DNA from: Alphaproteobacteria bacterium
GTDB taxonomy: Bacteria; Pseudomonadota; Alphaproteobacteria; UBA9219
NCBI GenBank assembly: GCA_028708035.1
Contig: JAQVZU010000002.1
Span: 300-64,299, forward strand
DNA length: 64,000 bases
Reading direction: 5' to 3'
Shown: positions 3,101-56,045 of the stretch, in pieces
Numbering within the stretch: position 1 is the first letter of the stretch
Layout: each line of letters begins with the position of its first letter
The notes under the pieces: generated by a model
Databases searched by the model: none
What the model was told of the DNA's origin: nothing
The model's input: the letters and a program-made list of their open reading frames with translations, nothing else
Program-made: the position numbers and the translations under genes

Positions 3101-5025
3101 TGTGTTCTGCATCCCGTAAGGTCGGTGCTCCACGCCAGTTGCGTCGCGTCTTTTGCAAGCCTTTCTGCCAAAGCCGAATATTTGCAACCGCTTTGGACAA
3201 TATCCCCAAGCAAAGAAAGGCCGTTTTGCCACAACGAGTCCCCAAACGCGGAAATGTCCGCTTCCGGTAAATTCGATGCCGCCTTTGCCGCACTCGCGGC
3301 GACATTAAGGGAGTGAAGGGTGCTTTCGGTTGAAGGTATTTTTTGTTCGACCTCGACGGCATTATTTAGGATGGCCTCGAACAGGTTTTGAAGGTCCGAT
3401 AGGCTGTCACAAAGACGATCATATTCGTTGGGCAACAACTGCGAACGACGAACGCCGCGCCAAGGATGTTGCACGGGAAAGCCGATTTCTTTGATTCTGG
3501 CTGTTATATCGGCGAGGCGCTCTTTTTTGTCCTTTTTGTCGGCGGCAGACCAATTTTCAGGACATTCTAGAACGACGCCGCGAACGTCGATCTTGTTTTG
3601 TCGAAGACGAACGGATTCCCCAATAATCTGATAGGCCGTCAATCCCGAAGGCTGGTGTTGCTGGTGTAGAACTTTTGCGTGTTCATTGAGCTTATTTCGA
3701 AGGGAGGCCAGTTGAGCAAGCGTTTCTTGTCCGTTGCAGTTTTTGGGTCGCCCGATTTCGCGGGTGCGCTGGATTTCTTCGAGAACCGCCCGTTTGTTGG
3801 ACTTATTGCTATGAAGTTCAAGACAAAGGGAGCCAAGGCCAATATTCGTCATGCGGCGGAAGACGACTTCCAAAGCAGACATTTTTTCTGCAACAAATAA
3901 AACTTTTTTACCGTCCGCAACCGCGTTAGCGATTATGTTCGTAATTGTTTGGGATTTTCCTGTCCCCGGCGGTCCTTGAATGACCAAGTTTCTTCCGCGA
4001 CGCACTTCTTCAATCGCAAGCGCCTGAGAACTGTCGGCGTCCATGACATGTAGGATTCGTTCCGGCGGTAAAAATTGGTCTATATTTTCGTCTTCGCCGA
4101 TCATACCGTCCGTTACAGGGAACCCATCGGTAAGCAATCCTGCAACAAGCGCGTTTTTGTCAATCTTCCCGTCGTCGGGCCAAACTTCCGGGGCAAGATC
4201 ACGGTACATAAGAAATTTAGCGAATGAAAAGAAGCCAAGAACCATATCGTCTTCGATAACTTCAAATCGTTTGTGTGCCTCAACCGCCATTCGAATGGAG
4301 TTCATAAAGGCAGAAATGTCGAGTTCGTCGGTTTGAGGCAAATCGGGCAAAACAAGGCCGAATTCAGCTTTTAACTTAGCTTGCAACGAAAGGTTCGCTG
4401 CGCAATCTTCATTGCGCCAACGCAATTTGAATTTCTGTGCGGCGTTTCCACGATCAAGGGTTACCGGTACTAAAAACAACGGCGCATAACGCGCTTCATC
4501 GGAGCTTTCCGCTTCGAACCACTTCAACATCCCTATAGCGAGATAGAGAATGTTGACGCCCTGTTCCTCTTCAAAGGTTCGTGCATCATAATAAAGGGAA
4601 AGAAGGCGCTTTTGTAAACCTTCCGAAGTCAGCAAAGTTTGCAACCGATGATCTTGGTGACGTTGGGCAACGCCATTTTCGGAAACCTCATCATCTTCCG
4701 GTTGGGGCAACTCTCCAAAATCATCGTCTTCTTGAGGTTGCGCTGCGGGGTCAATGTTTGTATCCACTGCCGCCTTTTGCTTCTCCCTTCCCGGAAGAAA
4801 GGTCAGGGTTTTCCCTTCGGATACCAATAAACGATAGGTTTCCGTGGCTTTCTCGTCGCAGATTTCTATTGTTTTGGCGCTTTTCTTCTGTCTGGGAACG
4901 TTGAGAAGCCTATTTCTTAAAGACAAATCAAGAAGAGCCTGACGGCTTGTTTCAAGTTGCGCTGCGACAGTTGCCATTTGTTTTCCGCCTTGCCGATCAT
5001 TCCGAGAAAGGAATGATAGCGCCAT
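196..5025 (-). CDS. Large multidomain SF1 (Upf1-like) helicase with an N-terminal DUF4011 region, split AAA_11/AAA_12 helicase core, a DUF559/Vsr-like PD-(D/E)xK endonuclease-like domain and C-terminal DUF3320
   Basis: 1609-aa ORF with ATG start. Walker A is GPPGTGKSQT and Walker B is LLVMDEASQ. C-proximal helicase motifs SLIAVSNREFYENRL and VIFISVGYGRNS are present. The following region GIECDGASYHS...DRLRQAVLEDHGWIIHRIWSTDWF is typical of DUF559 REase-like domains, and the N-terminal LYLAIGMLKW...PLFLVPVTL block is typical of DUF4011. Confidence 0.8.
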   Translation of the reverse strand: MALSFLSRNDRQGGKQMATVAAQLETSRQALLDLSLRNRLLNVPRQKKSAKTIEICDEKATETYRLLVSEGKTLTFLPGREKQKAAVDTNIDPAAQPQEDDDFGELPQPEDDEVSENGVAQRHQDHRLQTLLTSEGLQKRLLSLYYDARTFEEEQGVNILYLAIGMLKWFEAESSDEARYAPLFLVPVTLDRGNAAQKFKLRWRNEDCAANLSLQAKLKAEFGLVLPDLPQTDELDISAFMNSIRMAVEAHKRFEVIEDDMVLGFFSFAKFLMYRDLAPEVWPDDGKIDKNALVAGLLTDGFPVTDGMIGEDENIDQFLPPERILHVMDADSSQALAIEEVRRGRNLVIQGPPGTGKSQTITNIIANAVADGKKVLFVAEKMSALEVVFRRMTNIGLGSLCLELHSNKSNKRAVLEEIQRTREIGRPKNCNGQETLAQLASLRNKLNEHAKVLHQQHQPSGLTAYQIIGESVRLRQNKIDVRGVVLECPENWSAADKKDKKERLADITARIKEIGFPVQHPWRGVRRSQLLPNEYDRLCDSLSDLQNLFEAILNNAVEVEQKIPSTESTLHSLNVAASAAKAASNLPEADISAFGDSLWQNGLSLLGDIVQSGCKYSALAERLAKDATQLAWSTDLTGCRTQIALHGKSFLRVFFPSYRQAIVLLTSIASGPLPKKYEDRLAFADDIISAQQLAALLKEHDEAGRKAFGKLWQGTHSDWAKLDNVLAWRKSVPDTLSPNDFLVSCSKIENAPTLSVPASSLEKLLPEFFSKLSELFRTLQLDVRAAFDVSTVEAINRDALHERLTSWARNTESLSKWISFNGRYDAICEGGLRTLGERLWKGTLLPDEAHDVFERAYYDTLTEVVFTEHPLLREFDGELHANLVENFRANDLHRIEQARIEIRQKHYNSLPRSEGGIGALGILNGEISKKRNHLPIRQLLKHAGLAIQAIKPVFMMSPLSVAQFLEPGSMTFDLLVMDEASQVEPVDALGAIARAKQIVVVGDSRQLPPTKFFSRVTDNANDNDDDDNAALAVQDVESVLNLCVARGFPQSMLRWHYRSRHQSLIAVSNREFYENRLFIIPSPYDAASGMGLKFNYLPQATFDSGGTATNPQEAKAVAKAVIQHAKDYPHLSLGVGTFSIKQKQAIIDELELLRRMHPETETFFTQAHIDEPFFVKNLENIQGDERDVIFISVGYGRNSSGYMAMRFGPLSSEGGERRLNVLISRAKRRCELFSSITADDIDLERAKGAGVSSLKLFLKFAQTGKLDFGRTTEREADSVFEEQVAAALRTRGYDVKTQIGIAGFFVDLGIVDPEKPGRFVLGIECDGASYHSSRSARDRDRLRQAVLEDHGWIIHRIWSTDWFRRPNEQLEKTVAAVEQAKKNLVAQEQEDERPKAKQVFEIVSYDDGNMLNVLVSVGEKSLSVPYQEAVVPVPSHREPHELGDNEMAEIVAKIVEAEMPVHESEIITRVRTLWNLGRAGSRIQDKVKAGLAHAVRRNLVAKDGEFYFKQDAEIKVRDRGAVSSLGLKKPENLPPSEIKKAVLTVIETNFGAEREQLPTEILRLFGFKSSSAQLREVIEAQIQDLLTQERLCQKGNTLLMCEGKKAVGH

Positions 5026-5127: not shown

Positions 5128-5199
5128 GCGGGCGAGGGGGATTTGAACCCCCATCATCCCGATCTTCAATCGGACGCTCTACCGTTGAGCTAGCGCCTG
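5128..5199 (-). tRNA. Probable tRNA-Phe (anticodon GAA); the acceptor stem as read has two mismatches
   Basis: Minus-strand sequence shows a D-arm TAGCTCAACGGTAGAGC, an anticodon stem-loop TCCGA-TTGAAGA-TCGGG (anticodon GAA) and a T-arm GGGGG-TTCAAAT-CCCCC. CCA is not encoded. Acceptor 5' CAGGCGC pairs imperfectly with 3' TCGCCCG. Confidence 0.6.
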
Positions 5200-5397: not shown

Positions 5398-5472
5398 TGG
5401 TGGGTGCGACAGGGATTGAACCTGTGACCCCTACCGTGTGAAGGTAATGCTCTCCCGCTGAGCTACGCACCC
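5398..5472 (-). tRNA. tRNA-Val (anticodon CAC), CCA encoded
   Basis: Minus-strand GGGTGCG-TA-GCTCAGCGGGAGAGC-A-TTACC-TTCACAC-GGTAG-GGGTC-ACAGG-TTCAATC-CCTGT-CGCACCC-A-CCA forms a canonical cloverleaf with a perfect 7-bp acceptor stem. Confidence 0.85.
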
Positions 5473-10838: not shown

Positions 10839-11468
10839 ATGTTTTCAAAAAACAAACCCTCGCAAGCGAGGAAGGGTTTTACCCTCACTGAAATTGCGAT
10901 CGTTCTTGGTATTATGGGGCTGATCCTGGGCGCCATTTGGACTGCGGCTTCAAGCGTTTACGCCAATCAACGTACAGCGCACGCACAAACGGCAATACTG
11001 CAAATTGCTCAGGGCGTCAGGACACTTTACACTTCACAGGGGGGCACGGGATACACAGCTTTAACGGATATTACGGTAAATCTGAATTCAGCAGGCGTAA
11101 TTCCAAGCGATCTTAACGGCGGAGCGACTGGACCCTTTCCCAATGGACGTTCGGGTATTATTGCAACAAGCGATGGGAACGGGTTCGTTGTCGTGGTAAC
11201 TGGTGTTCCTCAATCGAACTGCATTAACTTGATTGCAGGCATTGCGGGCGCAAACCGTGATCCCGGTCTGTTTTCAGCATCTGCCGTGGCTGATGCAGCC
11301 ATTGGTACTGGTGATGCAGGGACTGGGGCAACGTTCGCGCCCTTACAGGATGAAGTTTCACCGACAGAGGCTGCGGCAGCCACGGTAAACGATGGCAATG
11401 GCGCTCCTATCGGCGGTTGCAATCGTACCACACTCAGCAAAGTTCGGTTTGGCTTCTCGATTAAGTAA
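10839..11468 (+). CDS. Type IV pilin / pseudopilin (prepilin-type N-terminal cleavage/methylation domain)
   Basis: N-terminus MFSKNKPSQARKG|FTLTEIAIVLGIMGLILGAIW has the class III signal G/FTLxE followed by a hydrophobic helix. A Cys pair (C128...C195) could form a D-region. Confidence 0.7.
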   Translation: MFSKNKPSQARKGFTLTEIAIVLGIMGLILGAIWTAASSVYANQRTAHAQTAILQIAQGVRTLYTSQGGTGYTALTDITVNLNSAGVIPSDLNGGATGPFPNGRSGIIATSDGNGFVVVVTGVPQSNCINLIAGIAGANRDPGLFSASAVADAAIGTGDAGTGATFAPLQDEVSPTEAAAATVNDGNGAPIGGCNRTTLSKVRFGFSIK

Positions 11469-22202: not shown

Positions 22203-22238
22203 AGAAAAAGCCCGCTCAGTAGAGCGGGCTTTTTTTAC
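22203..22238. terminator. Bidirectional intrinsic terminator
   Basis: GCCCGCTC-AGTA-GAGCGGGC hairpin flanked by an A-run and a T-run, lying between convergent genes. Confidence 0.75.
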
Positions 22239-23470
22239 GCCCTGCGAACTTCCTCGCGCGGCGGGATGGGAATTGATCGTTTATCCGGATCATGCAGATA
22301 CATATTAAGCGTAACAACCGCAGTGTCGACTCGCGGAATGGGCAGCGGCTTCTTTGCCGAAGTCTCGGCCATAAAGTGAGCCAAAGCCCCTGCCCCTTCG
22401 GTGTGAAACGCACGGCGCCCAAGGTTATTCAAGGGATACCAAAGGGAACGGTCTTCGGCGCGGAGCCACAAAAACGTCGCTGGAGCAAGAACGCCGCCAT
22501 TAGTCCTTGCCCAACGCAATGCGCCAAGCATTGCCGTTGTCCGCCAAGCATGCTGATCCATGACGGGCAGAAGTTTTCCCCCGATTTCAGGATCTTTCAG
22601 AATTCTTTTGATCTCGGCGATGATCTCGTGGTCTGGACGAAAGCCCTTGTCGGGAAACCAGCATTCTGAGATACGTCCTAAGAATGTATCGCTTTCTTCG
22701 CGCTTCTGAGCGCCTCTGAGCGCGAACCCCGCGAGTAAGGCTTTCATGTGCAACGGTAAAGAATCGATCCCGTTCCACCGCGGCCCCAACTGCTGAATAA
22801 ACGCGCGCCGGACAGCATCGCGCTCCGGTATCCCATTATTCACAGGGATGCGATGCCATGAAATCCATTCCTCGGGCGAAAGCGCTTCGCCGAAGTGCGG
22901 GATTTTGTCCGGCACCGTGCCCCCGAGAATACGCCCTGATTTGGATGGATTCAGCTTTACGATTGGTGAGAGCACTGGCCACATCTTGGCTTGGGTCGCA
23001 ATCAGGCTTTCAAGAGTATGCTTGGTCATGAATTTATAGCGCGGGGAAAACATGATGCTAAACCCGCCAATCCATAGCAACATGAAAAGAACAGGCCAGC
23101 GATAATAGCGCTCAACCTCGGCAGCGATGGGAGCAAGCGAATTAAGCGAAAGCTGATAGTATGACAATAAATCTTCACGCGGAAGCGATCTGAGAAGATC
23201 GACGCCAAAACACGCGTTTGCAGCCTGAATGACCTGGCCGCTCGGGCGCGGATCGTTGACCTGAGCGGTACGAAGGAAAGTTAGGCATGCATCGTAATTA
23301 TGCGTGAAAAGATTGACGATGAAAAGTTCTCCCCAGCGCAACCACCGCAAAACATAGTTAAGCCAGAAATCGCCAGTCATGCGCCAAAAAACGTATGACA
23401 CCACCGCAATTAGCAAAAGCAGCAGCACAAGAAGAATGCCGGGTTCACCGCCTTGGTTTTGAGCACTCAT
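22235..23470 (-). CDS. Hypothetical membrane protein (two N-terminal hydrophobic segments, large soluble C-terminal domain)
   Basis: 411-aa ORF with ATG start. TM segments ILLVLLLLLIAVVSYVFW and WPVLFMLLWIGGFSIMF precede an acidic/aromatic-rich C-terminal domain. No recognisable catalytic motif. Confidence 0.55.
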   Translation of the reverse strand: MSAQNQGGEPGILLVLLLLLIAVVSYVFWRMTGDFWLNYVLRWLRWGELFIVNLFTHNYDACLTFLRTAQVNDPRPSGQVIQAANACFGVDLLRSLPREDLLSYYQLSLNSLAPIAAEVERYYRWPVLFMLLWIGGFSIMFSPRYKFMTKHTLESLIATQAKMWPVLSPIVKLNPSKSGRILGGTVPDKIPHFGEALSPEEWISWHRIPVNNGIPERDAVRRAFIQQLGPRWNGIDSLPLHMKALLAGFALRGAQKREESDTFLGRISECWFPDKGFRPDHEIIAEIKRILKDPEIGGKLLPVMDQHAWRTTAMLGALRWARTNGGVLAPATFLWLRAEDRSLWYPLNNLGRRAFHTEGAGALAHFMAETSAKKPLPIPRVDTAVVTLNMYLHDPDKRSIPIPPREEVRRA

Positions 23471-23553: not shown

Positions 23554-24459
23554 CTAGCTTCTAAGCTTCTTGATGATGTCGTCAAGTTGGTCCAAATCAG
23601 TATAAAAAAGCGTTAACGTGCCTGATTTACCCTTGGTGGTTATCTTGACCTTCAATCCAATGACGCGCTCCAACTCTTTTTCAAGGGCCAGAACATCAGC
23701 ACCCTCGTCCGGGTTAGCCCGTTTTTTGTGAATTTCGGGATTATCCTGATCGCGTTTTGCAAGCGTCTCGGCTTGACGGACATTCAGTCCCTTTTTGATG
23801 ATTTCTTTTGCGAGCGCGGCGGGATTTTTCGTCACCACAAGGGCGCGCGCATGGCCATGAGTAAGCCTTCCATCTGAAACCATTTCCCTTACTTCACTAG
23901 GTAAAGTCAGCAATCGAAGCATATTCGTGATATGCGGTCTGCTCTTCCCTACTATCTTTGCAAGTCTTTCCTGCGTATGACCAAATTCCTCAAGGAGCCG
24001 TTTGTATGCCTCGGCTTCTTCGATTGCGTTCAGGTCTTCGCGCTGAACGTTCTCGATAATACCGAATTCCATGGCTTCACGGTCGGAGAGTTCGCGCACA
24101 AGCACCGGAACGTCATGAACACCCGCCATCTGCGCCGCACGCCATCTGCGCTCGCCAGCGACAATCTCATATTTGTTTTTTTCGCCGGGCATAGGGCGAA
24201 CCAGAAGCGGCTCGAGAATGCCGCGTTCCTGAATAGACGAGGCAAGTTCCGACAAAGCCTCATCGTCGAAATGCGTCCTCGGCTGGTACTTGCCCGATTG
24301 CAGGTAGGAAATCGGGAGGCGCTGCAAGCCGTTGGCAGCGTCGCCCGTCGAAGCGGACCCGGGTGCTCCGGCTGATGGCTTGAACGACGCGTCAATATCG
24401 CCGAGTAAAGCCGATAATCCGCGCCCAAGCGGAGACGGTTTTAATGATGTAGTGCTCAT
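23554..24459 (-). CDS. parB: Chromosome partitioning protein ParB
   Basis: ParB box II region IVAGERRWRAA and HTH SQERLAKIVGKSRPHITNMLRLL. Lies downstream of parA. Confidence 0.9.
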   Translation of the reverse strand: MSTTSLKPSPLGRGLSALLGDIDASFKPSAGAPGSASTGDAANGLQRLPISYLQSGKYQPRTHFDDEALSELASSIQERGILEPLLVRPMPGEKNKYEIVAGERRWRAAQMAGVHDVPVLVRELSDREAMEFGIIENVQREDLNAIEEAEAYKRLLEEFGHTQERLAKIVGKSRPHITNMLRLLTLPSEVREMVSDGRLTHGHARALVVTKNPAALAKEIIKKGLNVRQAETLAKRDQDNPEIHKKRANPDEGADVLALEKELERVIGLKVKITTKGKSGTLTLFYTDLDQLDDIIKKLRS

Positions 24460-24488: not shown

Positions 24489-25310
24489 TCAATTTCCAAC
24501 GGCCCAACGTTTGTCGTCGTCGCGATCATTCTTAATGCCGAATTCGCGCTTCAGAACTTCGCTTGCCAACTGCATATAAGCCCGTGATCCGCTGCACTTG
24601 AGATCGTACAGAAGCACCGGCTTGCCGTGAGACGGCGCTTCCGAAACGCGCACGTTCCGGGGTATAACGGTTTCGTAGACCTTTTCTCCGAAATATGAGC
24701 GCACATCGCTCGCCACAGCGTCCGAAAGGCTGTTGCGCTTGTCGTACATAGTTAGAATGACGCCCTGAATTTCAAGATCGGGATTGAATCTGGCCCGAAT
24801 GGCCTCGATAGTCTGAAGCAGGCTTGATACGCCTTCGAGCGCATAGAATTCCGGCTGCAACGGAATCATAATCGCATGAGCCGCCACCAACGCGTTGAGC
24901 GTAATGAGATTAAGCGACGGCGGACAGTCAATAAAAATAACGTCATAATCCTTGGCGCTGCGATCAAGCGCATCCTTCATCCGGAATTCGCGCCGGTCGA
25001 TAGTCACAAGCTGAATTTCCGCGCCCGCAAGATCGGCTGAAGATGTAATCACCGAGAGATTAGGCACCGCGGTCGGTTTTGCGACATCTTCGACGGACAT
25101 CCCGTCAAACATCAGCTCATAACATCCCGTTCCGCGTTCAGCGCGAACGAATCCGATGCCGGTCGACGCATTTCCCTGCGGATCGGCATCGACGACCAGA
25201 ACACGCTTGCCTACCGCCGCAAGAGCTGTGGCAAGATTGACTGTGGTTGTGGTTTTACCAACGCCGCCTTTTTGGTTGACAACAGCGATGATGCGGCAAT
25301 TTAAGGTCAT
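24489..25310 (-). CDS. parA: Chromosome partitioning ATPase ParA
   Basis: Deviant Walker A KGGVGKTTT and a ParA/MinD fold. Confidence 0.9.
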   Translation of the reverse strand: MTLNCRIIAVVNQKGGVGKTTTTVNLATALAAVGKRVLVVDADPQGNASTGIGFVRAERGTGCYELMFDGMSVEDVAKPTAVPNLSVITSSADLAGAEIQLVTIDRREFRMKDALDRSAKDYDVIFIDCPPSLNLITLNALVAAHAIMIPLQPEFYALEGVSSLLQTIEAIRARFNPDLEIQGVILTMYDKRNSLSDAVASDVRSYFGEKVYETVIPRNVRVSEAPSHGKPVLLYDLKCSGSRAYMQLASEVLKREFGIKNDRDDDKRWAVGN

Positions 25311-25319
25311 TTTAGGTAG

Positions 25320-25949
25320 TTAATGTTTTCGTCGGAGGTTTTTTATAACAACGATCTGCCCTGAAGCATCGCTTTGGCTTTGGTGAATTTCTGGATCGAA
25401 TGTCCAATATTTTTTAGCCTCTGTCAATTCTTCGCTCAGAGACTTCCCCTTTAAAAAAAGCCCTACAGAATCATTCTTCATCAAGGTCTTGGCGTATCTC
25501 AGAAGCTCTGGAAGCGCCTTAACTGCGCGCGCCGTGACGACATCAGCTTTCAAGTCTCGAATATCCTCCGCCCGTTCGCGCCGGACAACGACGTTTAGCC
25601 CAAGTTCATCAACGACAGACTGGAGAAAATCGGCTTTTTTTCCTGTGCTTTCTATTTCGTGGATCTCAAGCGGCAAGGCCTTTTCTTTAGCCAAAATAGC
25701 CAAAACAAGACCCGGAAACCCCGCCCCTGCCCCAATATCAGCTAGAATACTCGCTGTGTCCGGAATAAATGGCATAAGTTGCGCGCTATCAAGAAAATGA
25801 CGGCTATAGATTGTTTCTAGCGTACTTTTGGCCACAAGGTTGATTTTTTCATTCCACTGAATTAATGACTTTTTGTAAAGAGTTAGCCTGTGGATAGTTT
25901 CATAAGAAACAGAAAATGCGGAAAAGAAGCTTTTTTCGTCGTCGGTCAT
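25320..25949 (-). CDS. rsmG: 16S rRNA m7G527 methyltransferase RsmG (GidB)
   Basis: 209-aa protein with the SAM-binding motif [11 protein letters not shown]. Lies downstream of mnmG. Confidence 0.85.
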
Positions 25950-27844
25950 GAAATACCTCCTGAATAACGGCCCTGCTCCCCCTCGTTACGTTTTCTCTTC
26001 ACATAGCGCAAAAGGGCTATCACAGCCGCCGGAGTTACTCCCGGGATTCGCGCCGCCGCTCCCAGCGTTTCAGGCTTAATCTGTCGAAGCTTTTGCCGAA
26101 TTTCCGTCGAAAGGCTTCCAATAGACTCCACATCCAAATCCGCAGGCAAAATTAAAGCCTCATCCTTTTTGAACGCCCGGATATCAATTTCTTGGCGCTC
26201 CAAATACCCTGCGTATTTTCCCTCAATTTCAAGTTGCTCGGCAATTTCTGGTGAAATTCCAGCCAATTCGGGCCAAACGTCTATAAGCGTTTTTAGTCCG
26301 ATACTGACATAAGAAATCAGCTCTAGCGCCGAACGAACCACCCCATCGGCATTAATCCGTATACCTTTGGCCGCCAACTTGTTCGGGGAAGCGTTTAGCC
26401 GATCCATCAAGGCGCGCGCCTCGGCAAGCTCACGCATCTTATCGGAAAACGCCTTTTGACGATGCGGGCTGATACAGCCCAACGCGATTCCCATGGGTGT
26501 AAGCCGTTGGTCCGCATTATCGGCCCTCAGAGTCAGCCTGTACTCGGCTCGGGATGTAAACATCCGATAGGGCTCATTAACGCCTTTTGTAACCAGATCG
26601 TCTATCAGAACGCCTATATAAGCTTGGGTACGGTCAAGTGTGAAAGCGGGCTTTCCGCCAACCTTCAACGCCGCATTGATCCCTGCGATAAGCCCTTGAG
26701 CCGCAGCCTCTTCGTATCCTGTCGTTCCGTTGATTTGTCCCGCAAAGAAAAGCCCTGGTACGCGCTTGGTTTCAAGCGTCGCTTTTAGTTCTCGTGGATC
26801 GCAAAAGTCATATTCAATCGCATAGCCGTACCGAATAACCCGTACGTCGGCCAGCCCTTCAATAGAGCGGATAAATGCATCTTGAACATCCACCGGCATC
26901 GATGTCGAAATTCCATTTGGATAGACGGTGTCGTCATCAAGTCCTTCTGGTTCAAGAAAAACCTGGTGCCGTTTTTTGTCGGCAAAGCGAACGACTTTGT
27001 CTTCAATAGACGGACAATAGCGGGGTCCGCGGCTTTTTATTTGCCCGGAATACATAGGCGCGCGATGTAAATTCGCGCGAATGATTTCGAGCGTCTTATC
27101 CGTTGTGTGCGTAATCCCACATGAAACCTGTGTATTAGAAATATGGGCCGTAAGCGTCGAAAAAGGAACAAGCGGGTTATCTCCTGCCTGCATTTCCATA
27201 ACGCTCCAATCGATGGTTTTTCCATCGAGCCTCGATGGCGTCCCTGTCTTTAACCGCCCCAAGGTAAACCCAAGCCTCTCAAGCGCAATGCTTATTCCGC
27301 AAGAAGGTGGCTCATTGATACGTCCCGCGGGAGTTTGGGTCTCTCCCTGATGGATGATACCGCGAAGAAATGTCCCCGTCGTCACAACCACCGCGCCCGC
27401 ATAATACTTAGCGCCAGACGCTGTAACAACGCCAGAAATGCAGCCGTTTTCCGATGCAATCAGGTCTTCGACGGGATCGGCTCGCACTTCGAGATTCGAC
27501 TGGTTTTTCAGTGCCTCAAACATTGCGCGTCTGTAGAGCTTCCTGTCCGCTTGACAGCGGATCCCCTGCACTGCCGGACCCTTACTTCTATTTAAAACGC
27601 GAAACTGTATCCCCGCCGCATCCGCAACACGCCCCATAACACCGTCGAGAGCATCGATTTCGCGCACAAGGTGTCCTTTGCCAAGCCCACCGATAGCAGG
27701 GTTGCACGACATTTCCCCCACAGTTTCAAGCTTATGAGTCAACAATAGCGTGCATGCGCCCATGCGCGCTGCCGCTGCCGCCGCTTCGCATCCTGCGTGA
27801 CCGGCTCCAATGACGATAACATCGAAAGCAAACATCGCGGACAC
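25946..27844 (-). CDS. mnmG: tRNA uridine-5-carboxymethylaminomethyl modification enzyme MnmG (GidA)
   Basis: FAD-binding motif [14 protein letters not shown] and a conserved GidA core. 632 aa. Confidence 0.9.
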
Positions 27845-27962
27845 ATACGGGAAAAAGCCCGTAAAATCAACAATAACTGATTAAATCTGAATAATTAACA
27901 CTATCCTTATCATTATCCCGTACACTGTGACCATACTTAAAATCCCTGTATTTTGAGGGAAA

Positions 27963-28625
27963 ATGGGACGTTTATTAACGCTAGATGATTTACAGAAGCA
28001 ATTTGATATCACACGCGACTCCCTTGCGGTCGCGCGGAGAGAAATCCTTGGCGCATCGCCCCTGCCCCCGGACTATTCACGCGACAGTTACAGTTTCTCA
28101 TATCTCCGCGCCGAGCGCATCGGCATGGCGATCATTTCAAATCGGCTTGAAGACATCGCTTTCCTTCCCCTTCATCTCGACCCGCGCGTCGAAATCATGA
28201 TGGATAATAAAAATTCTTTCAAAAAATGGCTGTCCTCAACTTGCCAAGATCAGCCCGACAGTACACAGTTCGGAAACGATTTTATTCATGCTCTAACGCG
28301 CGTTGCCGTAACACAAGGTTGGCAAAGCCCTGAATTTAGATCCATGGCGTATCGCATCGGAGAATTGTTTCATGATCTCTCTTGTCTTATCGGTTTGATC
28401 TATTACGGCGTTTGGATGGCCGAAAATGGAATAGGCGGCGTGTTGGTTTCCGACCCTTATGATCTTGAACGCACAGCGAGAGAAATAGCCGATCTGGCCA
28501 TCTCTCCCGAAGTACAGGATCTCATCGCCGACAACAACAAGGCCAGGCGCAAGCACGGTCCAGATTTACATCTTGTCGAAACAGCCCCAGACGGTGGCGT
28601 TCCGCCACCATTTTCTGATAGATGA
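27963..28625 (+). CDS. Hypothetical protein (no recognisable domain)
   Basis: 220-aa ORF with ATG start. It is divergent from mnmG and co-directional with the downstream GGDEF gene. Confidence 0.5.
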   Translation: MGRLLTLDDLQKQFDITRDSLAVARREILGASPLPPDYSRDSYSFSYLRAERIGMAIISNRLEDIAFLPLHLDPRVEIMMDNKNSFKKWLSSTCQDQPDSTQFGNDFIHALTRVAVTQGWQSPEFRSMAYRIGELFHDLSCLIGLIYYGVWMAENGIGGVLVSDPYDLERTAREIADLAISPEVQDLIADNNKARRKHGPDLHLVETAPDGGVPPPFSDR

Positions 28626-28708
28626 TCTTTCTCTACGGCGTTAAAGACTTGATTACTAATCTTTGCATATGCTGAATCTATGACATATTTCAAGTTTTAT
28701 GGACCATT

Positions 28709-30073
28709 TTGGTCATGACGAAAAAGATCCGCATTCATCCAACCGATGCGCCGTCAAAGCTAACGCATATCAACCAGAAACAGGTCACACCGGATTTCCG
28801 CTCGTTTTTCGACGAATTTGTCCAAGGCATTATTGTTCACAGAAACTTCAAGCCGCTCTACGCAAACAATGCATTCGCGTCGTTGTTCGGTTATAAAAAT
28901 TCTGGCGAGGTTTTGGCTCTTCCCCTACTTCGCGAGCTTGTTCCTAATGATCTTTGGCCATCCGTCGAAATTGAATACGACGAAATGATGCGCGGCCTTA
29001 AAGAAGCCTACATTGGCCGTTCACGATGTGTCCACAAAAACGGACAGGAATTCTGGTGCGCTATAACGCTACGCGTCATCGATTGGCTAGACGGCCCTGC
29101 AATGATGCTTACTGCCTATGACATTACCCAACAAGTCGAACTCGAATATGGCCTTCTCACCAATGAGCAAAAGCTGCGGTCTGTTCTAGAAATTCTCCCG
29201 TATCCTATCTACATCTCGCGGCGCTCCGATGGACAAATTATGTTTGTCAACAGGAAAAGCTGCCTGTTGTTTCAGAAAAGCGCTGGACAGTTTCTACGTT
29301 CCACCGCCGACGAACTTTTTGTCGATCCGCAGGACAGGCAAAATCTTTTGAACCTGTTCCAAACAATTTCGGACGTTCGAGAGATCGAGGTCCGAATGAA
29401 GACCTCGCAAAACCGCTCGTTCATCGCAGAACTTGCCTCCATAGCTATCGACTATAATGGAGACAAAGCTTTTCTCGTCGCTCTCAACGACATTTCTCAA
29501 AGGAAAATACTTGAAGCCGAACTTTTCAGGCAGGCCTCCATTGATGCGCTGACAGGGATCAACAATCGTGGGCATTTCCAAAGTCTGGCGGAACAGGAAG
29601 TACGCCGCGCGCGGCGTTTTTCAAGAGCCCTCACCGCCTTGATGATAGACATCGATTTTTTTAAGCCTATCAACGATACCTTTGGACATGCAGCGGGAGA
29701 TGTCGTTCTTCAAGGAATTGTGAAACGCGCTACAGAAAGCTTGCGTCAATCCGACTGCATCGGTCGTGTCGGTGGAGAAGAATTTGCCGTATTATTGCCC
29801 GAAACGTCCATCTCGGCGGCTTATGACGTTGCCGATCGTCTTCGCAAACATATCGAGGAAAAACCTATTGTTGCCGGACATCAAGCCATCTCTTGCACAG
29901 TCAGCATAGGCATTGCCGAATTGATTCCCGAAGACAGCGGCATCGACGATCTCCTAAGGCGCGCCGATAAGGCCCTTTACGCTGCCAAGCAAGCAGGCCG
30001 CAACAGGGTAGAGCCCAAAAGGGAGCTTAGTGAATCAAAAATAAGCGTGGGAAAAAGGGCCTCTGATTCCTAA
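28709..30073 (+). CDS. PAS-domain diguanylate cyclase (GGDEF, intact GGEEF active site)
   Basis: C-terminal GGDEF domain with the RxxD-like I-site region and active-site GGEEF (RVGGEEFAVLLP). N-terminal PAS-like repeats are present. Confidence 0.8.
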   Translation: MVMTKKIRIHPTDAPSKLTHINQKQVTPDFRSFFDEFVQGIIVHRNFKPLYANNAFASLFGYKNSGEVLALPLLRELVPNDLWPSVEIEYDEMMRGLKEAYIGRSRCVHKNGQEFWCAITLRVIDWLDGPAMMLTAYDITQQVELEYGLLTNEQKLRSVLEILPYPIYISRRSDGQIMFVNRKSCLLFQKSAGQFLRSTADELFVDPQDRQNLLNLFQTISDVREIEVRMKTSQNRSFIAELASIAIDYNGDKAFLVALNDISQRKILEAELFRQASIDALTGINNRGHFQSLAEQEVRRARRFSRALTALMIDIDFFKPINDTFGHAAGDVVLQGIVKRATESLRQSDCIGRVGGEEFAVLLPETSISAAYDVADRLRKHIEEKPIVAGHQAISCTVSIGIAELIPEDSGIDDLLRRADKALYAAKQAGRNRVEPKRELSESKISVGKRASDS

Positions 30074-30096
30074 CGGGAAAACGAAGCCCCTGCCCT

Positions 30097-31473
<1,377 letters not shown>

Positions 31474-31479
31474 TATATC

Positions 31480-32130
31480 GGGAGAAATTACAGCGAGGTT
31501 GCCCTAACTGGACACGTTCGCTAATGCTGGGTGAGATTCCGGCGGTAGATAAAAAGAAGCACGAAAACTACTGCGCCGGAGCAGGGCCTTCTTTAGACAA
31601 AGGAACGACCAAAGTCAAGAAGTCCTTGCGGCATAAGCTCAAAAGAATGTTCGATATTAACCAAAAAAATGGCTTTCTTGAAATTTTTTGTCTGAAGGCT
31701 TGTAAATTTAGAAAAGATTAAGAAATTTCTTAAATTGTATGTTTTAAGATTTGTTAACTTCCTTTTATGAGTTTTCCCCTCTCTTTTTTCTTAATATAAA
31801 TATAATAAAAGATTGTAGAAGTAAGTTGTATCAGTGAGTTATGTGGATACAATATATTCAAACACTATCCCTTACTTCTGCACAAATTTTTTACGATTCA
31901 TAAATCCAAGTTAAAATTTCTAAACAGTTCGTAACTTCTCATTAATCCTTCTTTAACCTAGACTTGGATAAATCTGTGGAAAACGAGGATAACTAAGACC
32001 AAAAGTTATCCCACTTATTAACAAAGGGTAAACAATAATTAACCAAGATGGTGATAAAAGTATGAACCAAATTGCTTGAAGCGTATAAAAAACTTGCTAA
32101 CTGGTTTTTTTGCCAACTTATCCCCACTAT
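31480..32130. other. Putative chromosomal replication origin (oriC) in the AT-rich rho-DUF299 intergenic region
   Basis: GC content here is markedly lower than in the flanks. A perfect CtrA-type site TTAA-N7-TTAAC lies at 31942-31957. DnaA-box variants TGTGGATAC (31842-31850) and TGTGGAAAA (31975-31983) are each 8/9 matches to TTATCCACA. A 16-bp palindrome TTAAGAAATTTCTTAA lies at 31718-31733. The downstream gene is the DUF299 homolog that flanks Cori in Caulobacter and Rickettsia. Confidence 0.5.
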
Positions 32131-53275: not shown

Positions 53276-54799
53276 TTAGTTCTTGTTTTGGACGTAAGGC
53301 GTGTTGGCGTTGTTGCGTCCCGAGATAGAACCGCTGCCATTATAGCCGGTATTCACGCCGTTATAAGGGCCATTTTGTGAATTTACATAAGCGCCCGCCT
53401 CGCCGGGAAAATTCGACCTTCCTGGCGCATAGTTGACGCTGTATCCTTGACTGTACCCTTGGCTATATCCTTGATCGACAGTTGTGCTCTGTTGCGCCGG
53501 AGAAGAACCCTTGACCGCAGTCAAAAAGAACATGCCAAACGGCGTTCCCGGCGCGACGCGAACCAAAGGCCTCGTCACGCTGGCTTGTTGTTGAAAAAAC
53601 TGCCCGACCGTGTTGGCAGCCTGCCCTAATCCGGCATACATGCCTTGCTCAAATCCGGCTCGCGCTTGCGTTGTAATGGTTGTTGTGCCGGTATTGGTGA
53701 TCGATGTATCTCCCTGTCCCATCGCCTGCCCAATACCTTGAATAAAGCTGGCGGCGGCCGGAAGAACAACGCGCGAGAAATATCTTTCGTCAACCTCCGT
53801 CGCCATGCCCCCAAGAGTGGTTTCGGGATCCAGCGCAATAGCGTTGATCGAGTAATCCTTGCCGTTTTTGTCTGCCAGCGAAAACCTCATAACCAGATAT
53901 TTTTCATATCCGTCGGCGACCTGAAAAGAGCCTATCGCCCTCGCTCCAGTAAGGGGTCCCGACACAATCTGCGCAAGAATGGGACCCGGAACGTCAGAAT
54001 TGGCTTCCGACAAAAGCTGAGCATAACTGACGGTGCCTGGCGAAATAATCGGCTTCTGTTCGACCACCACCGCAGCAGCTGTTGATTCCACGCCCATGGG
54101 GACGTCTCCGCCCATAATTCTGTCGTTGCCGCCTACAAAGTCGGCATTAGCGTTTCCGCTGCTGGTGTTTTTGTTCTCATCCTTAAGAGAAACGGTAACC
54201 GCCTTCATGCCCTGCGCCTGCCAACTCGACATCAATTGGTTTAATTGTCTTTGCATGGCATCCGCGAGCGAATTGTCAAAATTCTCAGTTGGCCGCGTGG
54301 TCTTTTGCTGTTCGCGAACCTGCCGTTTAAGCTGCTCCGTCTCAGCGCGAAGTTCCTTCAGAGGATCGGCTCCCTTGTTGTTCAGGGCATTGCTCGAAAT
54401 ATCTGTCGTCTGCCCCAGCGGGGTTGGGATGGCACTTCCGCCCGTATTAAGCGCCTGCTCAACACGTTGATTGTTGGCAAGTTCGGTCTGCTGGCGCAAA
54501 TACGGAGATGCTTTGCCTCCGGGAGCTTCCTTAATAGATGGTGGGCGCGAGAGATGAGCAACCTCCTTCCCCTCATTGCTGCTGCCGAAGAATTTGATCG
54601 CGGCAGCGCCTACCGCAAAAACGCCAATGACCAGAGCCGTAAACTTAAACAAAGGCTTTTCGCGCAATGCCTCAACGATGGTTCCTATGCCGCTTTTTGG
54701 CGCGGATTCATCCACGGGTTCCATTTCGCTGTCGGAAAACTCGTTATTTTCCGTATTTTCGTCGTTCTCGCCGTTTTCATTTCCAAAATCAGTTGTCAT
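53276..54799 (-). CDS. VirB10/TrbI-family type IV secretion protein (DotG/IcmE-like)
   Basis: Acidic N-terminus, a single TM segment (FKFTALVIGVFAVGAAAIKFF), a coiled coil and a C-terminal domain matching the VirB10/TrbI signature (LSEANSDVPGPILAQIVSG...GSFQVADGYEKYLVMRFSLADKNGKDYSINAIALDPETTLGGMATEVDERYF). Start set at MTTDFG to remove the overlap with the upstream gene. Confidence 0.65.
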   Translation of the reverse strand: MTTDFGNENGENDENTENNEFSDSEMEPVDESAPKSGIGTIVEALREKPLFKFTALVIGVFAVGAAAIKFFGSSNEGKEVAHLSRPPSIKEAPGGKASPYLRQQTELANNQRVEQALNTGGSAIPTPLGQTTDISSNALNNKGADPLKELRAETEQLKRQVREQQKTTRPTENFDNSLADAMQRQLNQLMSSWQAQGMKAVTVSLKDENKNTSSGNANADFVGGNDRIMGGDVPMGVESTAAAVVVEQKPIISPGTVSYAQLLSEANSDVPGPILAQIVSGPLTGARAIGSFQVADGYEKYLVMRFSLADKNGKDYSINAIALDPETTLGGMATEVDERYFSRVVLPAAASFIQGIGQAMGQGDTSITNTGTTTITTQARAGFEQGMYAGLGQAANTVGQFFQQQASVTRPLVRVAPGTPFGMFFLTAVKGSSPAQQSTTVDQGYSQGYSQGYSVNYAPGRSNFPGEAGAYVNSQNGPYNGVNTGYNGSGSISGRNNANTPYVQNKN

Positions 54800-56045
54800 G
54801 TTCTTCTTCCCGCAAAATTTGAGCGCGAACGAGCGCGCCATTATCCGATAGCACAAGGACGGGCGCGGACCCTACTTCATATACGGACGTGCCATCCGGC
54901 GATACCATGCTGGCATTCCATGCGGGCGAAAGAAGGGTCAAAGGCGTGCGTACATAAACCTTATCGCCAATGGCCCACGCCTTTGTTCTTTGATCCAATC
55001 CCCCTACTTTGACGCGCGTCGCTCCTGGGGGCGGCGTAGTCTCAAGAAAGTGGGCCAGAGTATCATCACCGGCCTGGGGCCTGGAGAAACTGCTACGTTC
55101 GACAAGAGGCGGCTTGGCTTGAGGTCCTGATTTATCGATGCGCGCATCATAGCGTAGATCAACGGTAGGCCCTCCTGACGAAAGTCTGAAAATGACAGGC
55201 GTCGGAAGATTTTTAAGCATGACAGAGAGATTGCCTACGCCGATGCGCGTCAAAGGCATGACGCGAACCACATGGGACCCAGCCCCGGTTGGCGTTACTT
55301 CAAAATTGCCGCCGATGCCGACATCCAGGATTGGCCAAGGTTCCCCGGTTGAATCCACAATAGTAATCGTTGTTATAAATCCAGCGTTCAGATTAATCTG
55401 CGGTGGCGAAACGCCCGGATCGAGAGACACAGGAATCAAACGTGTAATTCCTTTTGGCGTGCCTTCATAAGGAGGTTGCGATGCCTGCTGAGTTTGTTCC
55501 AATCGCCGCATGAAATCGCGAATTTGGTCCGGAGATAGCGGCAGAAGTCCGTTTGATGCCTTGTCGTAGGATTTGGCGTTATACTCGCGCTCTCTCTTCA
55601 AGGCCTCTGCATCTGCATCAGCCTCAGCTTGAAGGGCTGCTTGTGAGGCTTCCTGCGCCAGCTTCGCCGGATCGGAAGAAAATGCCGATGCAGGCGGCGG
55701 GGACGGAATATCGATGCCCGATGAACTGGACACAATTTTCTTCGGTGGCGTTGCCGCAGGCGGATTTGTTGCAGGAGGAGGATTTCCAACCGGTTGCGGC
55801 GCGACATCTGGCGTTGAAGAATCCGCTGCCGGAGATATGTCTGCGATTGTGGGCAGGACAACGGGTGCTGAAGAGGATTTTGAATCAGTCGGCGCGTTGG
55901 GAATGGCAATGCCTGATGGAGCACTAGAAGCAGAAGGCGAAGCCCCTGAAACGGCAAGCAGGACTCCCACTGTAAGCAGGAAGATTTTTCTCCGTCTTGT
56001 CGAGAGGTGAAGCGGCTGGTTCAGCAAAGGACATCTCCGGAGCAA
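54789..56045 (-). CDS. VirB9/TrbG-family secreted protein (DotH/IcmK-like)
   Basis: Sec signal peptide (RRRKIFLLTVGVLLAVSGASPSASSA), a P-rich region and a C-terminal region with the VirB9-like pattern (...IGDKVYVRTPLTLLSPAWNASMVSPDGTSVYEVGSAPVLVLSDNGALVRAQI). Confidence 0.6.
   Translation of the reverse strand: MLRRCPLLNQPLHLSTRRRKIFLLTVGVLLAVSGASPSASSAPSGIAIPNAPTDSKSSSAPVVLPTIADISPAADSSTPDVAPQPVGNPPPATNPPAATPPKKIVSSSSGIDIPSPPPASAFSSDPAKLAQEASQAALQAEADADAEALKREREYNAKSYDKASNGLLPLSPDQIRDFMRRLEQTQQASQPPYEGTPKGITRLIPVSLDPGVSPPQINLNAGFITTITIVDSTGEPWPILDVGIGGNFEVTPTGAGSHVVRVMPLTRIGVGNLSVMLKNLPTPVIFRLSSGGPTVDLRYDARIDKSGPQAKPPLVERSSFSRPQAGDDTLAHFLETTPPPGATRVKVGGLDQRTKAWAIGDKVYVRTPLTLLSPAWNASMVSPDGTSVYEVGSAPVLVLSDNGALVRAQILREEEHDN

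Follow-up and report, generated by a model that had tools for sequence, protein, structure and literature searches.

An old gene order with a divergent orphan gene beside mnmG in uncultured Alphaproteobacteria, and a conserved tail peptide that might contact ClpX

In Alphaproteobacteria, e.g. Caulobacter, the canonical gene cluster that includes the partition genes has the order rho-mnmE-mnmG-rsmG-parA-parB. By way of PopA, c-di-GMP gates the CpdR/RcdA/PopA pathway, and the folded domain of SspB, a specificity-enhancing adaptor of ClpXP, is rich in β-structure. The ClpX-binding (XB) peptide of E. coli SspB is RGGRPALRVVK (PMC3983244), and the XB peptide acts on ClpX's zinc-binding domain at any position in a polypeptide (PMC12373786). 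RcdA is a helical adaptor of Alphaproteobacteria, the disordered C-terminal tail of which serves as a tether and degron for ClpX (bioRxiv 10.1101/2020.06.12.148478).

The window described here (the whole stretch of DNA that was analysed, 64 kb in length) shares with the canonical cluster an intact mnmG-rsmG-parA-parB block with rho just beyond it, as had been stated in an earlier note on this DNA and as ORF and Pfam calls bear out. It differs in that (i) an extra, divergently transcribed orphan gene encoding a 220-aa protein lies between mnmG and the position of mnmE, (ii) in the sub-clade to which the window belongs mnmE has been relocated and a cyclase gene is found there, and (iii) a DotM-like gene comes after parB. 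The confirmed order is parB-parA-rsmG-mnmG on the reverse strand, the 220-aa ORF and a PAS-PAS-GGDEF ORF on the forward strand, and rho again on the reverse strand (Table 1). The divergent intergenic region between mnmG and the 220-aa ORF comprises 118 bp, and the spacer between the 220-aa ORF and the cyclase ORF comprises 83 bp or 89 bp, depending on whether TTG or ATG is taken as the start of the latter. The DotM-like gene is found beyond parB in the relatives as well, and the source lineage represents uncultured Alphaproteobacteria with type IVB secretion genes. An AT-rich, origin-like region with DnaA-box-like sites is located at 31474-32075, in agreement with the origin that had been presumed nearby. 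The parS sequence TGTTTCACGTGAAACA has no match in the window at up to 3 mismatches; in relatives, parS-like sites occur where rsmG and mnmG meet and also in certain mnmG/220-aa intergenic regions. Except for two tRNAs, no Rfam family, riboswitches included, was detected in the whole window.

Table 1. Coordinates of genes and candidate sequence elements in the window
Feature	Position	Strand	Basis or remark
parB	23554-24459	-	ORF and domain calls
parA	24489-25310	-	ORF and domain calls
rsmG	25320-25949	-	ORF and domain calls
mnmG (gidA)	25946-27844	-	Pfam GIDA, 565 bits; first gene of the mnmG-rsmG-parA-parB block
Operator-like element TTAACACTATCCTTA	27895..27909	+	conserved upstream of the 220-aa start
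-10-like TACACT (TAnnnT), putative promoter of the 220-aa gene	27921..27926	+	11 nt after the operator-like element
220-aa ORF	27963-28625	+	orphan-family protein; diverges from mnmG
Tail motif PDLHLV, residues 200-205	28560..28577	+	resembles the SspB XB peptide
Terminator-like hairpin GGTGGCG-TTC-CGCCACC, then ATTTTCT	28593..28609	+	3' end of the 220-aa ORF
Extended -10-like TGACATATT, putative cyclase promoter	28681..28689	+	begins 34 nt before the ATG
PAS-PAS-GGDEF ORF	28709-30073 (TTG start) or 28715-30073 (ATG start)	+	Pfam
rho	30097-31473	-	Pfam Rho_N, Rho_RNA_bind, ATP-synt_ab; convergent with the cyclase gene

The earlier note had pointed out that mnmE is absent between rho and mnmG and had proposed that the 220-aa gene and the cyclase gene replaced it. 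The absence is corroborated by domain calls and by a tblastn search with three MnmE proteins from relatives, which failed to locate mnmE anywhere in the 64-kb window: the sole matches are the two GTPase domains of der (61.1-61.9 kb), and no gene combining TrmE_N, MnmE_helical and a G domain is present in 27845-30096 or elsewhere in the window. The MnmE of the window's own MAG was not found among the 120 MnmE homologues listed, the closest of which exhibits 72% identity to a relative's MnmE; from its relatives we infer that this genome carries mnmE. In two relatives having the window's gene order, mnmE resides on the same contig, at distances of 56 kb and 361 kb, and hence it was relocated and not lost. 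The proposed replacement, on the other hand, is not supported. In several deeper relatives (L022, L025, L026 and the P0222 contig) mnmE directly follows the 220-aa gene in convergent orientation, and in L019 it is found a few genes beyond; the 220-aa gene thus occupies the same position together with mnmE, did not replace it, and constitutes an ancestral neighbour of mnmG. As far as the 220-aa gene is concerned, this is the situation that the earlier note had itself named as speaking against a replacement.

The gene order of the window is common to about 18 MAGs of related uncultured Alphaproteobacteria, and the pair of ORFs is real and conserved; the succession of the dotM-like gene, parB, parA, rsmG, mnmG, the 220-aa gene, the PAS-GGDEF gene and rho is the same in L002-L015, L017, L018 and L030, and rho is 88-97% identical between the window and its relatives. 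Consequently, the arrangement with the cyclase is old within the clade, and we are highly confident that the gene order represents an old, clade-wide arrangement and not a recent replacement. Moreover, the 220-aa gene adjoins mnmG divergently in every locus with enough flanking sequence (22 loci together with L030, L033, L037 and the P0222 contig), one lineage excepted, and this adjacency persists in family members that are only 31-32% identical. The genes downstream of it, in turn, vary across relatives and include the cyclase, mnmE, DUF6600, TrmB, MurJ and AhpC. The comparison shows that the orphan gene, which is lineage-specific, was inserted early between mnmG and mnmE, in divergent orientation relative to mnmG, and has remained at this site along with a conserved palindromic promoter element of its own; within the sub-clade of the window, mnmE has shifted to another chromosomal position and a PAS-PAS-GGDEF gene has come to stand between the orphan gene and rho.

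A position that persistent might be functional, and the 220-aa protein could then be an accessory of tRNA modification or maturation, e.g. a partner or regulator of MnmE-MnmG. Apart from the adjacency to mnmG and the placement of the gene between mnmG and mnmE in the four deeper loci named above, such a role would be in line with the neighbourhood in the exceptional lineage (P0226, L031/L032), where TrmB (Methyltransf_4) and RNase T are the immediate neighbours and TsaD lies three genes away, and with L016, where TrmB is the gene downstream. However, the 220-aa gene is always divergent from mnmG and possesses its own conserved promoter element, adjacency by descent amounts to one or two events instead of 25, and other divergent family members adjoin aroB or a dnaE-like gene. 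Furthermore, the gene stayed with mnmG when mnmE left, and its acidic domain exhibits neither a recognisable RNA-binding or enzyme fold nor a match to a known tRNA-modification family. We thus regard a role in tRNA modification as unlikely. It is likewise rather improbable that the position is devoid of functional meaning, with a lineage-specific housekeeping gene that landed once and was kept by synteny inertia, and with the cyclase as a second, independent insertion. Few blocks in these genomes are as stable as mnmG-rsmG-parA-parB, the genes downstream of the 220-aa gene vary widely, and divergent members are found in other contexts, all of which would agree with inertia; yet inertia leaves unexplained that the mnmG adjacency survives at 31-32% identity while the other side changed. 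It is also silent on the role of the protein and compatible with the ClpX-tether model, our low-confidence working hypothesis.

Purifying selection (pN 0.12 versus pS 0.77 against L002, the closest relative) and the existence of 77 homologues at 90% clustering identify the 220-aa ORF as a genuine gene, and the ORF is conserved among the relatives. The family is small: a profile search of 1.84 billion representatives yielded 36 representatives at 50% identity, without a single fusion protein among them, and its members are mostly full-length, single-domain proteins of about 205-250 residues, along with some shorter fragments. The protein had been described as lacking a recognisable domain, and indeed no match was obtained (i) in Pfam, NCBIfam, PHROGs or PADLOC, (ii) in Pfam at E<=10 for 27 family members, (iii) among PDB sequences searched with the family profile, or (iv) for the helical AF2 model among solved or viral structures. 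This model has a pLDDT of 90.6 and is confident for residues 1-195, falling to a pLDDT of ~60 in the tail. The resulting layout comprises an acidic helical domain (residues ~1-195; pI ~5), followed by a disordered linker of basic character and, towards the C-terminus, a conserved peptide, the pI of the tail being ~10, and the division into acidic and basic parts holds across the 77 members. With a maximal 19-residue hydropathy of 1.35 a membrane protein was rejected. A Dot/Icm effector is unlikely as well, considering that the rate of evolution of the protein is about as low as that of RsmG, that its gene belongs to a housekeeping block and that its tail is not rich in Glu.

A second conserved feature lies in cis. 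Upstream of the 220-aa start, at a distance of 65-147 nt, all 25 of 25 loci contain an operator-like element, the family consensus of which is the palindrome TTAACGATATCGTTA(A), i.e. TTAA-N8-TTAA; it is also present in L033, where the protein is 32% identical. The element spans 15-16 bp, conforms to TTAA-N8-TTA(A/T) in all loci, and occurs just once in the window and once per locus. Its N8 spacing is not that of a CtrA box, TTAA-N7-TTAA(C), which was rejected for this reason; true N7 sites of the CtrA type are located in the oriC-like region instead. On comparison by eye, the palindrome is unlike the consensus sequences of LexA, NrdR, Fur/Zur and FNR/CRP. In most loci, a TAnnnT hexamer follows at a fixed offset of 11 nt, and since no good -35 is found at a spacing of 16-18 nt, the palindrome presumably overlaps the -35/spacer region of a putative promoter for the 220-aa gene. 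A palindrome before the gene in every locus is typical of autoregulators, the divergent promoter region is shared with the mnmG operon, and the C-terminal tail is basic. One might hence consider the 220-aa protein to be an autoregulated DNA-binding factor that recognizes the palindrome and might act on the mnmG-parAB promoter or on origin-proximal DNA, but we judge this to be very unlikely.

The ClpX-tether model departs from the tail peptide instead. The family tail motif reads (K/R)-P-x-L-(R/H)-(V/L)-(I/V), with KKGRPVLRVIEN as the consensus tail, and is kept family-wide though the linkers vary: its strict form is present in 78 of the 96 full-length members, and the remainder, as listed, have a relaxed form. 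Among the 504 proteins predicted from the window and the loci, its occurrence within the last 45 residues is exclusive to the 220-aa family. The core of the family tail, RP-x-LRV(I/V), is identical to the core of SspB tails from enterobacteria, which are the tails compared and show little diversity. The similarity extends over 6-8 residues and was noticed post hoc. The window's version of the motif, GPDLHLVE, resembles SspB less closely than the family consensus does.

Comparison with SspB reveals both likeness and difference. On the one hand, the 220-aa family resembles SspB in (i) a three-part layout of folded binding domain, flexible linker and short conserved peptide, and (ii) the peptide core RP-x-LRV(I/V) as it occurs in the E. 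coli XB peptide. On the other hand, the folded domains resemble each other neither in sequence nor in fold, that of the 220-aa protein being helical and devoid of PF04386; the linker is acidic in SspB but basic in the 220-aa family; and the motif, which in SspB forms the extreme C-terminus, is followed by 8-15 further residues in the family. Because the SspB domain PF04386 was matched neither in Pfam at E<=10 with 27 members nor in searches of PDB sequences and folds, we do not file the 220-aa protein as a member of the SspB family. The same Pfam and fold searches reveal no similarity of the folded domain to RcdA, and the protein has neither the RcdA (DUF1465) profile nor a three-helix-bundle fold. 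Furthermore, no gene for ClpX, SspB or a known substrate was found in the window or in the neighbourhood of any relative.

Under the ClpX-tether model, a partner or cargo would be bound by the helical, acidic domain, while the flexible basic linker would present a peptide mimicking the XB peptide of SspB, which would dock on ClpX at its N-terminal zinc-binding domain. The 220-aa protein would then be an adaptor of ClpXP, or else a ClpXP substrate or an anti-adaptor. Judged from the sequence, we propose with low confidence that it is a ClpX-tethered adaptor or substrate.

The neighbouring gene encodes a protein of 454 residues when read from TTG, or 452 residues when read from the ATG at 28715, which is the start in the Logan gene call, and its intact GGEEF motif had been recognized in the earlier note. 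Two PAS domains (PAS1, residues ~30-146; PAS2, ~155-264) precede a GGDEF domain (~274-435), which matches PF00990 with 153.2 bits (cut-off 23.8) over profile positions 1-161 of 161 and TIGR00254 with 179.4 bits (cut-off 37.4). PAS matches above cut-off are those to PAS_9 (76 bits, two stretches), PAS (46 bits) and PAS_8 (44 bits), and TIGR00229 matches two stretches with 70 bits. Both GGEEF and the RxxD I-site (RQSD), which is situated five residues before it (RQSD-CIGRV-GGEEF), are invariant in 16 orthologues. The protein shares with PleD/DgcA-type cyclases having PAS domains the GGEEF motif, the I-site at canonical spacing and the tandem PAS domains ahead, and differs from them by having no receiver domain and no NCBIfam equivalog. 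Since no equivalog cut-off of NCBIfam is reached (the best is SiaD with 171 bits versus 290), none of the named cyclases is its orthologue. The I-site is an optional feature of GGDEF cyclases that marks the product-inhibited ones. It looks canonical and catalytically competent, and family knowledge would make it a soluble cytoplasmic diguanylate cyclase with product inhibition, based on GGEEF and the I-site, with the two PAS domains gating the activity on a signal. An extended -10-like element of the form TGn(T/C)AnnnT precedes the ATG by 34-40 nt in 9 of the 16 loci with an orthologue (500 shuffling trials: mean 3.0, maximum 7), so that at least part of the transcription of the cyclase gene probably starts at a promoter of its own; the promoters, like the terminator at the end of the 220-aa ORF, were called as consensus matches only.

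According to the earlier note, the cyclase may have its sensor or regulator in the 220-aa protein. If so, the two would form a functional pair, possibly coupling c-di-GMP to the origin, partition or the cell cycle. The adjacency on the same strand stands: the two genes are 66-254 bp apart in the 16 orthologous loci that were aligned, and ~18 genomes overall have the same order; the pair lies one gene from the oriC-like region and near parAB; and should the 220-aa protein be an adaptor of ClpX, the PopA/RcdA precedent of Caulobacter would tie c-di-GMP to adaptor-driven proteolysis. The regulatory part of the suggestion is weakly supported, however, and several observations speak against it. A PAS-GGDEF neighbour is missing from the 220-aa gene in L016, L019-L026, L031, L036, L037 and the P0222 contig, and in L033 a small GGDEF gene is located ~3.5 kb away on the opposite strand. 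The cyclase has PAS sensors and a promoter-like element of its own, the 220-aa protein shows no recognisable motif for binding c-di-GMP, and a terminator-like hairpin closes the 220-aa ORF in the window; terminator-like hairpins are not enriched over shuffles in the region, and this one is a candidate. The 220-aa gene is tied to mnmG, and because the cyclase gene has a separate promoter-like element and, in deeper relatives, is missing from the neighbourhood of the 220-aa gene, the two do not constitute an obligate pair. A functional pairing is hence highly improbable.

Returning to the ClpX-tether model, RcdA of the Caulobacter CpdR/RcdA/PopA hierarchy is likewise alphaproteobacterial and helical and has a disordered C-terminal tail; its pathway is gated by c-di-GMP, and here a cyclase gene lies next door to the 220-aa gene. 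It is tempting to speculate that the family represents a new class of ClpX-docking adaptors, in which a novel helical fold is combined with an SspB-like XB tail, and which is restricted to this lineage and locked to the origin-proximal mnmG-parAB cluster. In the window's sub-clade it might then work together with the cyclase, c-di-GMP gating the proteolysis of some factor of replication, segregation or the cell cycle, which would constitute an independent analogue of CpdR/RcdA/PopA. In this full form we deem the idea highly improbable. Our best explanation as a whole, comprising the clade-wide gene order, the cyclase and the ClpX tether, is offered as a tentative one.

As regards gene order, the finding is a modest one: a cluster as stable as rho-mnmE-mnmG-rsmG-parAB is nevertheless open to remodelling, and the order of the steps can be dated, with the orphan gene being inserted first and mnmE departing later. 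The more useful product is a well-defined orphan family, the fold of which is confidently modelled but unmatched, and in which both a cis-element and a tail peptide are conserved. For a lineage without cultured representative, the tail provides a cheap and falsifiable hypothesis, namely binding to the N-domain of ClpX. Should this turn out to be true, the family would represent a new adaptor architecture, and XB-like peptides might serve as a guide when genomes are mined for further adaptors of ClpX.

Definition of the genes by ORF listing and Pfam scans confirmed the gene anatomy claimed in the earlier note (see the table), and a Logan contig carries identical DNA with the same gene calls. 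mnmE is indeed missing between rho and mnmG: tblastn of three MnmE queries from relatives against the 64 kb matched only the GTPase domains of der. Compared with the canonical alphaproteobacterial order rho-mnmE-mnmG-rsmG-parAB, the gene order here represents a clade-specific variant. A scan of GTDB species genomes yielded 25 loci encoding members of the 220-aa protein family, which were then compared by tblastn with the window's proteins. In each of the 22 that include upstream flank, the gene is transcribed divergently from mnmG-rsmG-parA-parB. Where contig reach suffices, the full order (dotM-like, parB, parA, rsmG, mnmG, 220-aa gene, PAS-GGDEF, rho, PPDK regulator, mreC) recurs in L002–L015, L017 and L018, and likewise on a 585-kb JGI contig (L030), while the more distant loci L016 and L019–L026 lack the cyclase gene at this site. 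According to Pfam scans, L022, L025 and L026 have mnmE directly downstream of, and convergent with, the 220-aa gene, L019 has it several genes farther away, and the contig of a very divergent family member (P0222) reads mnmG(-), 220-aa gene(+), mnmE(-). Members of 31–32% identity (P0219 in L033, P0213 in L037) are also divergent from mnmG. The three exceptions seen are P0226, between TrmB and RNase T, P0216, after aroB, and P0223, preceding a dnaE-like C-terminus identified by eye. Since relatives keep the 220-aa gene here together with mnmE, it is not a replacement of mnmE, contrary to what the earlier note had proposed for it and the cyclase, and the synteny indicates that it was already present when mnmE disappeared from here. 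Two relatives encode MnmE elsewhere on the same contig, in differing surroundings: about 56.5 kb from the 220-aa gene (P0169; 173-kb contig of L012) and about 361 kb away (P0152; contig of L030). We infer that mnmE is present elsewhere in the genome of the window's own MAG, too.

Features of the window discussed in the text
Feature	Position	Strand	Basis or remark
Helicase-nuclease gene	196-5025	-	
tRNA-Phe	5128-5199	-	
tRNA-Val	5398-5472	-	
Type IV pilin-like gene	10839-11468	+	
DotM/IcmP-like gene	22235-23470	-	
parB	23554-24459	-	ORF listing, Pfam scan
parA	24489-25310	-	ORF listing, Pfam scan
rsmG	25320-25949	-	ORF listing, Pfam scan
mnmG	25946-27844	-	ORF listing, Pfam scan
mnmG start region	27845-27880	-	
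Palindrome	27895-27909	+	TTAACACTATCCTTA
220-aa ORF	27963-28625	+	ORF listing
Terminator-like hairpin	28593-28609	+	such sites not enriched over shuffles; weak evidence
Extended -10-like element of cyclase gene	28681-28689	+	TGACATATT
PAS-PAS-GGDEF ORF	28709-30073 (ATG at 28715)	+	ORF listing, Pfam scan
rho	30097-31473	-	ORF listing, Pfam scan
Origin-like intergenic region	31474-32075		
TrbI/VirB10/DotG-like gene	53276-54856	-	
dnaA	56658-58169	-	

Several further observations concern the surroundings. Directly upstream of mnmG, in the window as in relatives, a conserved TTG(A/C)TT(T/C)-N17-TAT (e.g., TTGATTTTACGGGCTTTTTCCCGTAT) overlaps the annotated GTG start, which suggests either a promoter very near the start codon or a true start codon further inside the ORF. 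The 600-bp AT-rich region between rho and the PPDK-regulator gene (34% GC versus about 50% for the window) is a likely chromosomal origin, judging from sequence features: DnaA-box-like 9-mers are roughly 10 times as dense as in the window overall, gene orientation switches at this region, and the cumulative GC skew has a local minimum there. The AT-richness and the DnaA-box-like 9-mers were seen again in most of eight relatives examined, along with a conserved TTAA-N7-TTAA site (TTAATCCTTnTTTAA); dnaA lies about 25 kb away. Although parAB is intact, the parS consensus TGTTTCACGTGAAACA has no match with up to 3 mismatches in the whole window. Many relatives (among L003, L007, L010, L011, L015, L017–L025 and L037) carry parS-like 14-mers at the rsmG/mnmG junction or inside mnmG, and L020, L021 and L037 carry them in the mnmG/220-aa intergenic region; at these places there are none in the window or its closest relative, L002. 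Directly after parB, and conserved there in the close clade, lies the DotM/IcmP-like gene (DotM_C domain, 159 bits; under the NCBIfam equivalog cut-off), 30 kb from the TrbI/VirB10/DotG-like gene, so type IVB secretion components seem to be scattered among housekeeping regions of this uncultured alphaproteobacterium. The 1609-aa helicase-nuclease (DUF4011, AAA_11/AAA_12, MTES_1575 REase domain, DUF3320) gives a full-length match (1908 bits) to PDC-S37, a candidate defence model of PADLOC, and also matches Hhe; its gene adjoins the two tRNA genes, as with a defence island. The pilin-like gene, whose product has an N-terminal methylation motif and the PilS N-terminal domain, is a solitary one, flanked by CorC-like and ComM/YifB-like genes identified by eye.

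Among PAS-GGDEF proteins the cyclase is a new but ordinary member, and it reaches no NCBIfam equivalog cut-off. Its active site (RQSD-CIGRV-GGEEF) combines the GGEEF reported earlier, intact as stated, with a canonical RxxD I-site, both invariant among the orthologues of 16 loci (63–84% identity). The two genes are separated by 83 bp (TTG start) or 89 bp (ATG) in the window and by 66–254 bp across the 16 loci, in which the pair is real and conserved. An obligate pair is argued against by sequence comparison, because (i) deeper lineages keep the orphan family without an adjacent PAS-GGDEF gene, (ii) an extended -10-like element TGn(T/C)AnnnT precedes the cyclase ATG by 34–40 nt in 9 of 16 loci (500 shuffling trials: mean 3.0, maximum 7), (iii) the cyclase carries two PAS sensor domains of its own and, as weak evidence, (iv) the window contains a terminator-like hairpin. 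Read-through co-transcription may nonetheless occur. That the 220-aa protein is the sensor or regulator of the cyclase, as had been suggested, appears quite improbable.

An orphan without known relatives outside its family, the 220-aa ORF is nevertheless a genuine and conserved gene (pN 0.12 and pS 0.77 against the closest relative, with synonymous sites saturated); in the NCBI record of an Alphaproteobacteria MAG its product is a hypothetical protein (locus tag PHW76_00500). Clustering at 90% leaves 77 homologues, the named ones all from uncultured Alphaproteobacteria except for one MAG labelled Bdellovibrionales, under which NCBI places Micavibrio. When 1.84 billion representatives were searched exhaustively with a profile, only 36 family proteins were returned, mostly full-length and single-domain (about 205–250 aa) with some shorter fragments, and none fused to other domains. 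As noted earlier, no domain is recognisable: 27 members had no match in Pfam, NCBIfam, PHROGs, PADLOC or PDB sequences at permissive thresholds. The protein is computed to be soluble, and a confident AlphaFold2 model based on the family alignment (mean pLDDT 90.6, pTM 0.80) comprises nine helices and a two-stranded sheet in residues 1–195, followed by a low-confidence tail. Family-wide, an acidic domain with a median pI of 5.05 contrasts with a basic tail with a median pI of 10.1.

In each of the 25 loci a 15–16-bp palindrome (consensus TTAACGATATCGTTA(A)) precedes the 220-aa start by 65–147 nt, one copy per locus and one in the window, with a TAnnnT hexamer a fixed 11 nt after it in most. It is retained in L033, where the protein is just 32% identical, and in long intergenic regions it tracks the 220-aa gene, not mnmG. 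Assignment as a CtrA box was rejected on spacing (TTAA-N8-TTAA). The 220-aa protein might be an autoregulatory factor binding this palindrome, but its acidic domain disfavours such self-recognition, and we regard this as very unlikely. A tRNA-related role would agree with the persistent mnmG/mnmE adjacency and with the flanking TrmB (tRNA m7G46 methyltransferase) and RNase T genes, with TsaD nearby, in the sole lineage where the orphan left mnmG (L031/L032); it is rendered rather doubtful by the divergent transcription, the other contexts (aroB, dnaE-like gene) and the lack of an RNA-binding or enzyme signature in the protein. TrmB is also the downstream neighbour in L016, and the recurrence of tRNA-maturation genes around the family may or may not be meaningful. 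Pure synteny inertia, itself compatible with the tethering described below, is about equally doubtful.

Every full-length family member listed carries, after a Lys/Arg-rich linker of variable length, a tail motif (K/R)-P-x-L-(R/H/Q)-(V/L)-(I/V), usually followed by E/x-N (GRPVLRVIEN in many members; GPDLHLVE, residues 199–206, in the window). Of the 504 predicted proteins of the window and all loci, only those of this family have P-x-L-[RH]-[VLI]-[VI] within the last 45 residues, and just one further protein has it at any position. The core of the motif matches RGGRPALRVVK, the XB peptide with which E. coli SspB binds ClpX (PMC3983244); enterobacterial variants read RP(A/S/T)LRV(V/I/M)K. XB binds the zinc-binding N-domain of ClpX wherever it is placed in a polypeptide and is enough to tether proteins for degradation (PMC12373786), and in the helical Caulobacter adaptor RcdA the C-terminal tail is both tether and degron (bioRxiv 10.1101/2020.06.12.148478). 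The 220-aa protein failed the defining-domain tests for SspB and RcdA and its folded domain is related to neither; it is thus a member of neither family, but by analogy may work like them. Like tethering adaptors, it joins a folded domain through a flexible linker to a docking peptide, which leads us to propose, tentatively given a short motif spotted post hoc, that it might dock on ClpX via its tail peptide as adaptor, anti-adaptor or substrate. While the synteny finding is of moderate to low interest, an orphan family with a testable ClpX hypothesis is of somewhat higher interest.
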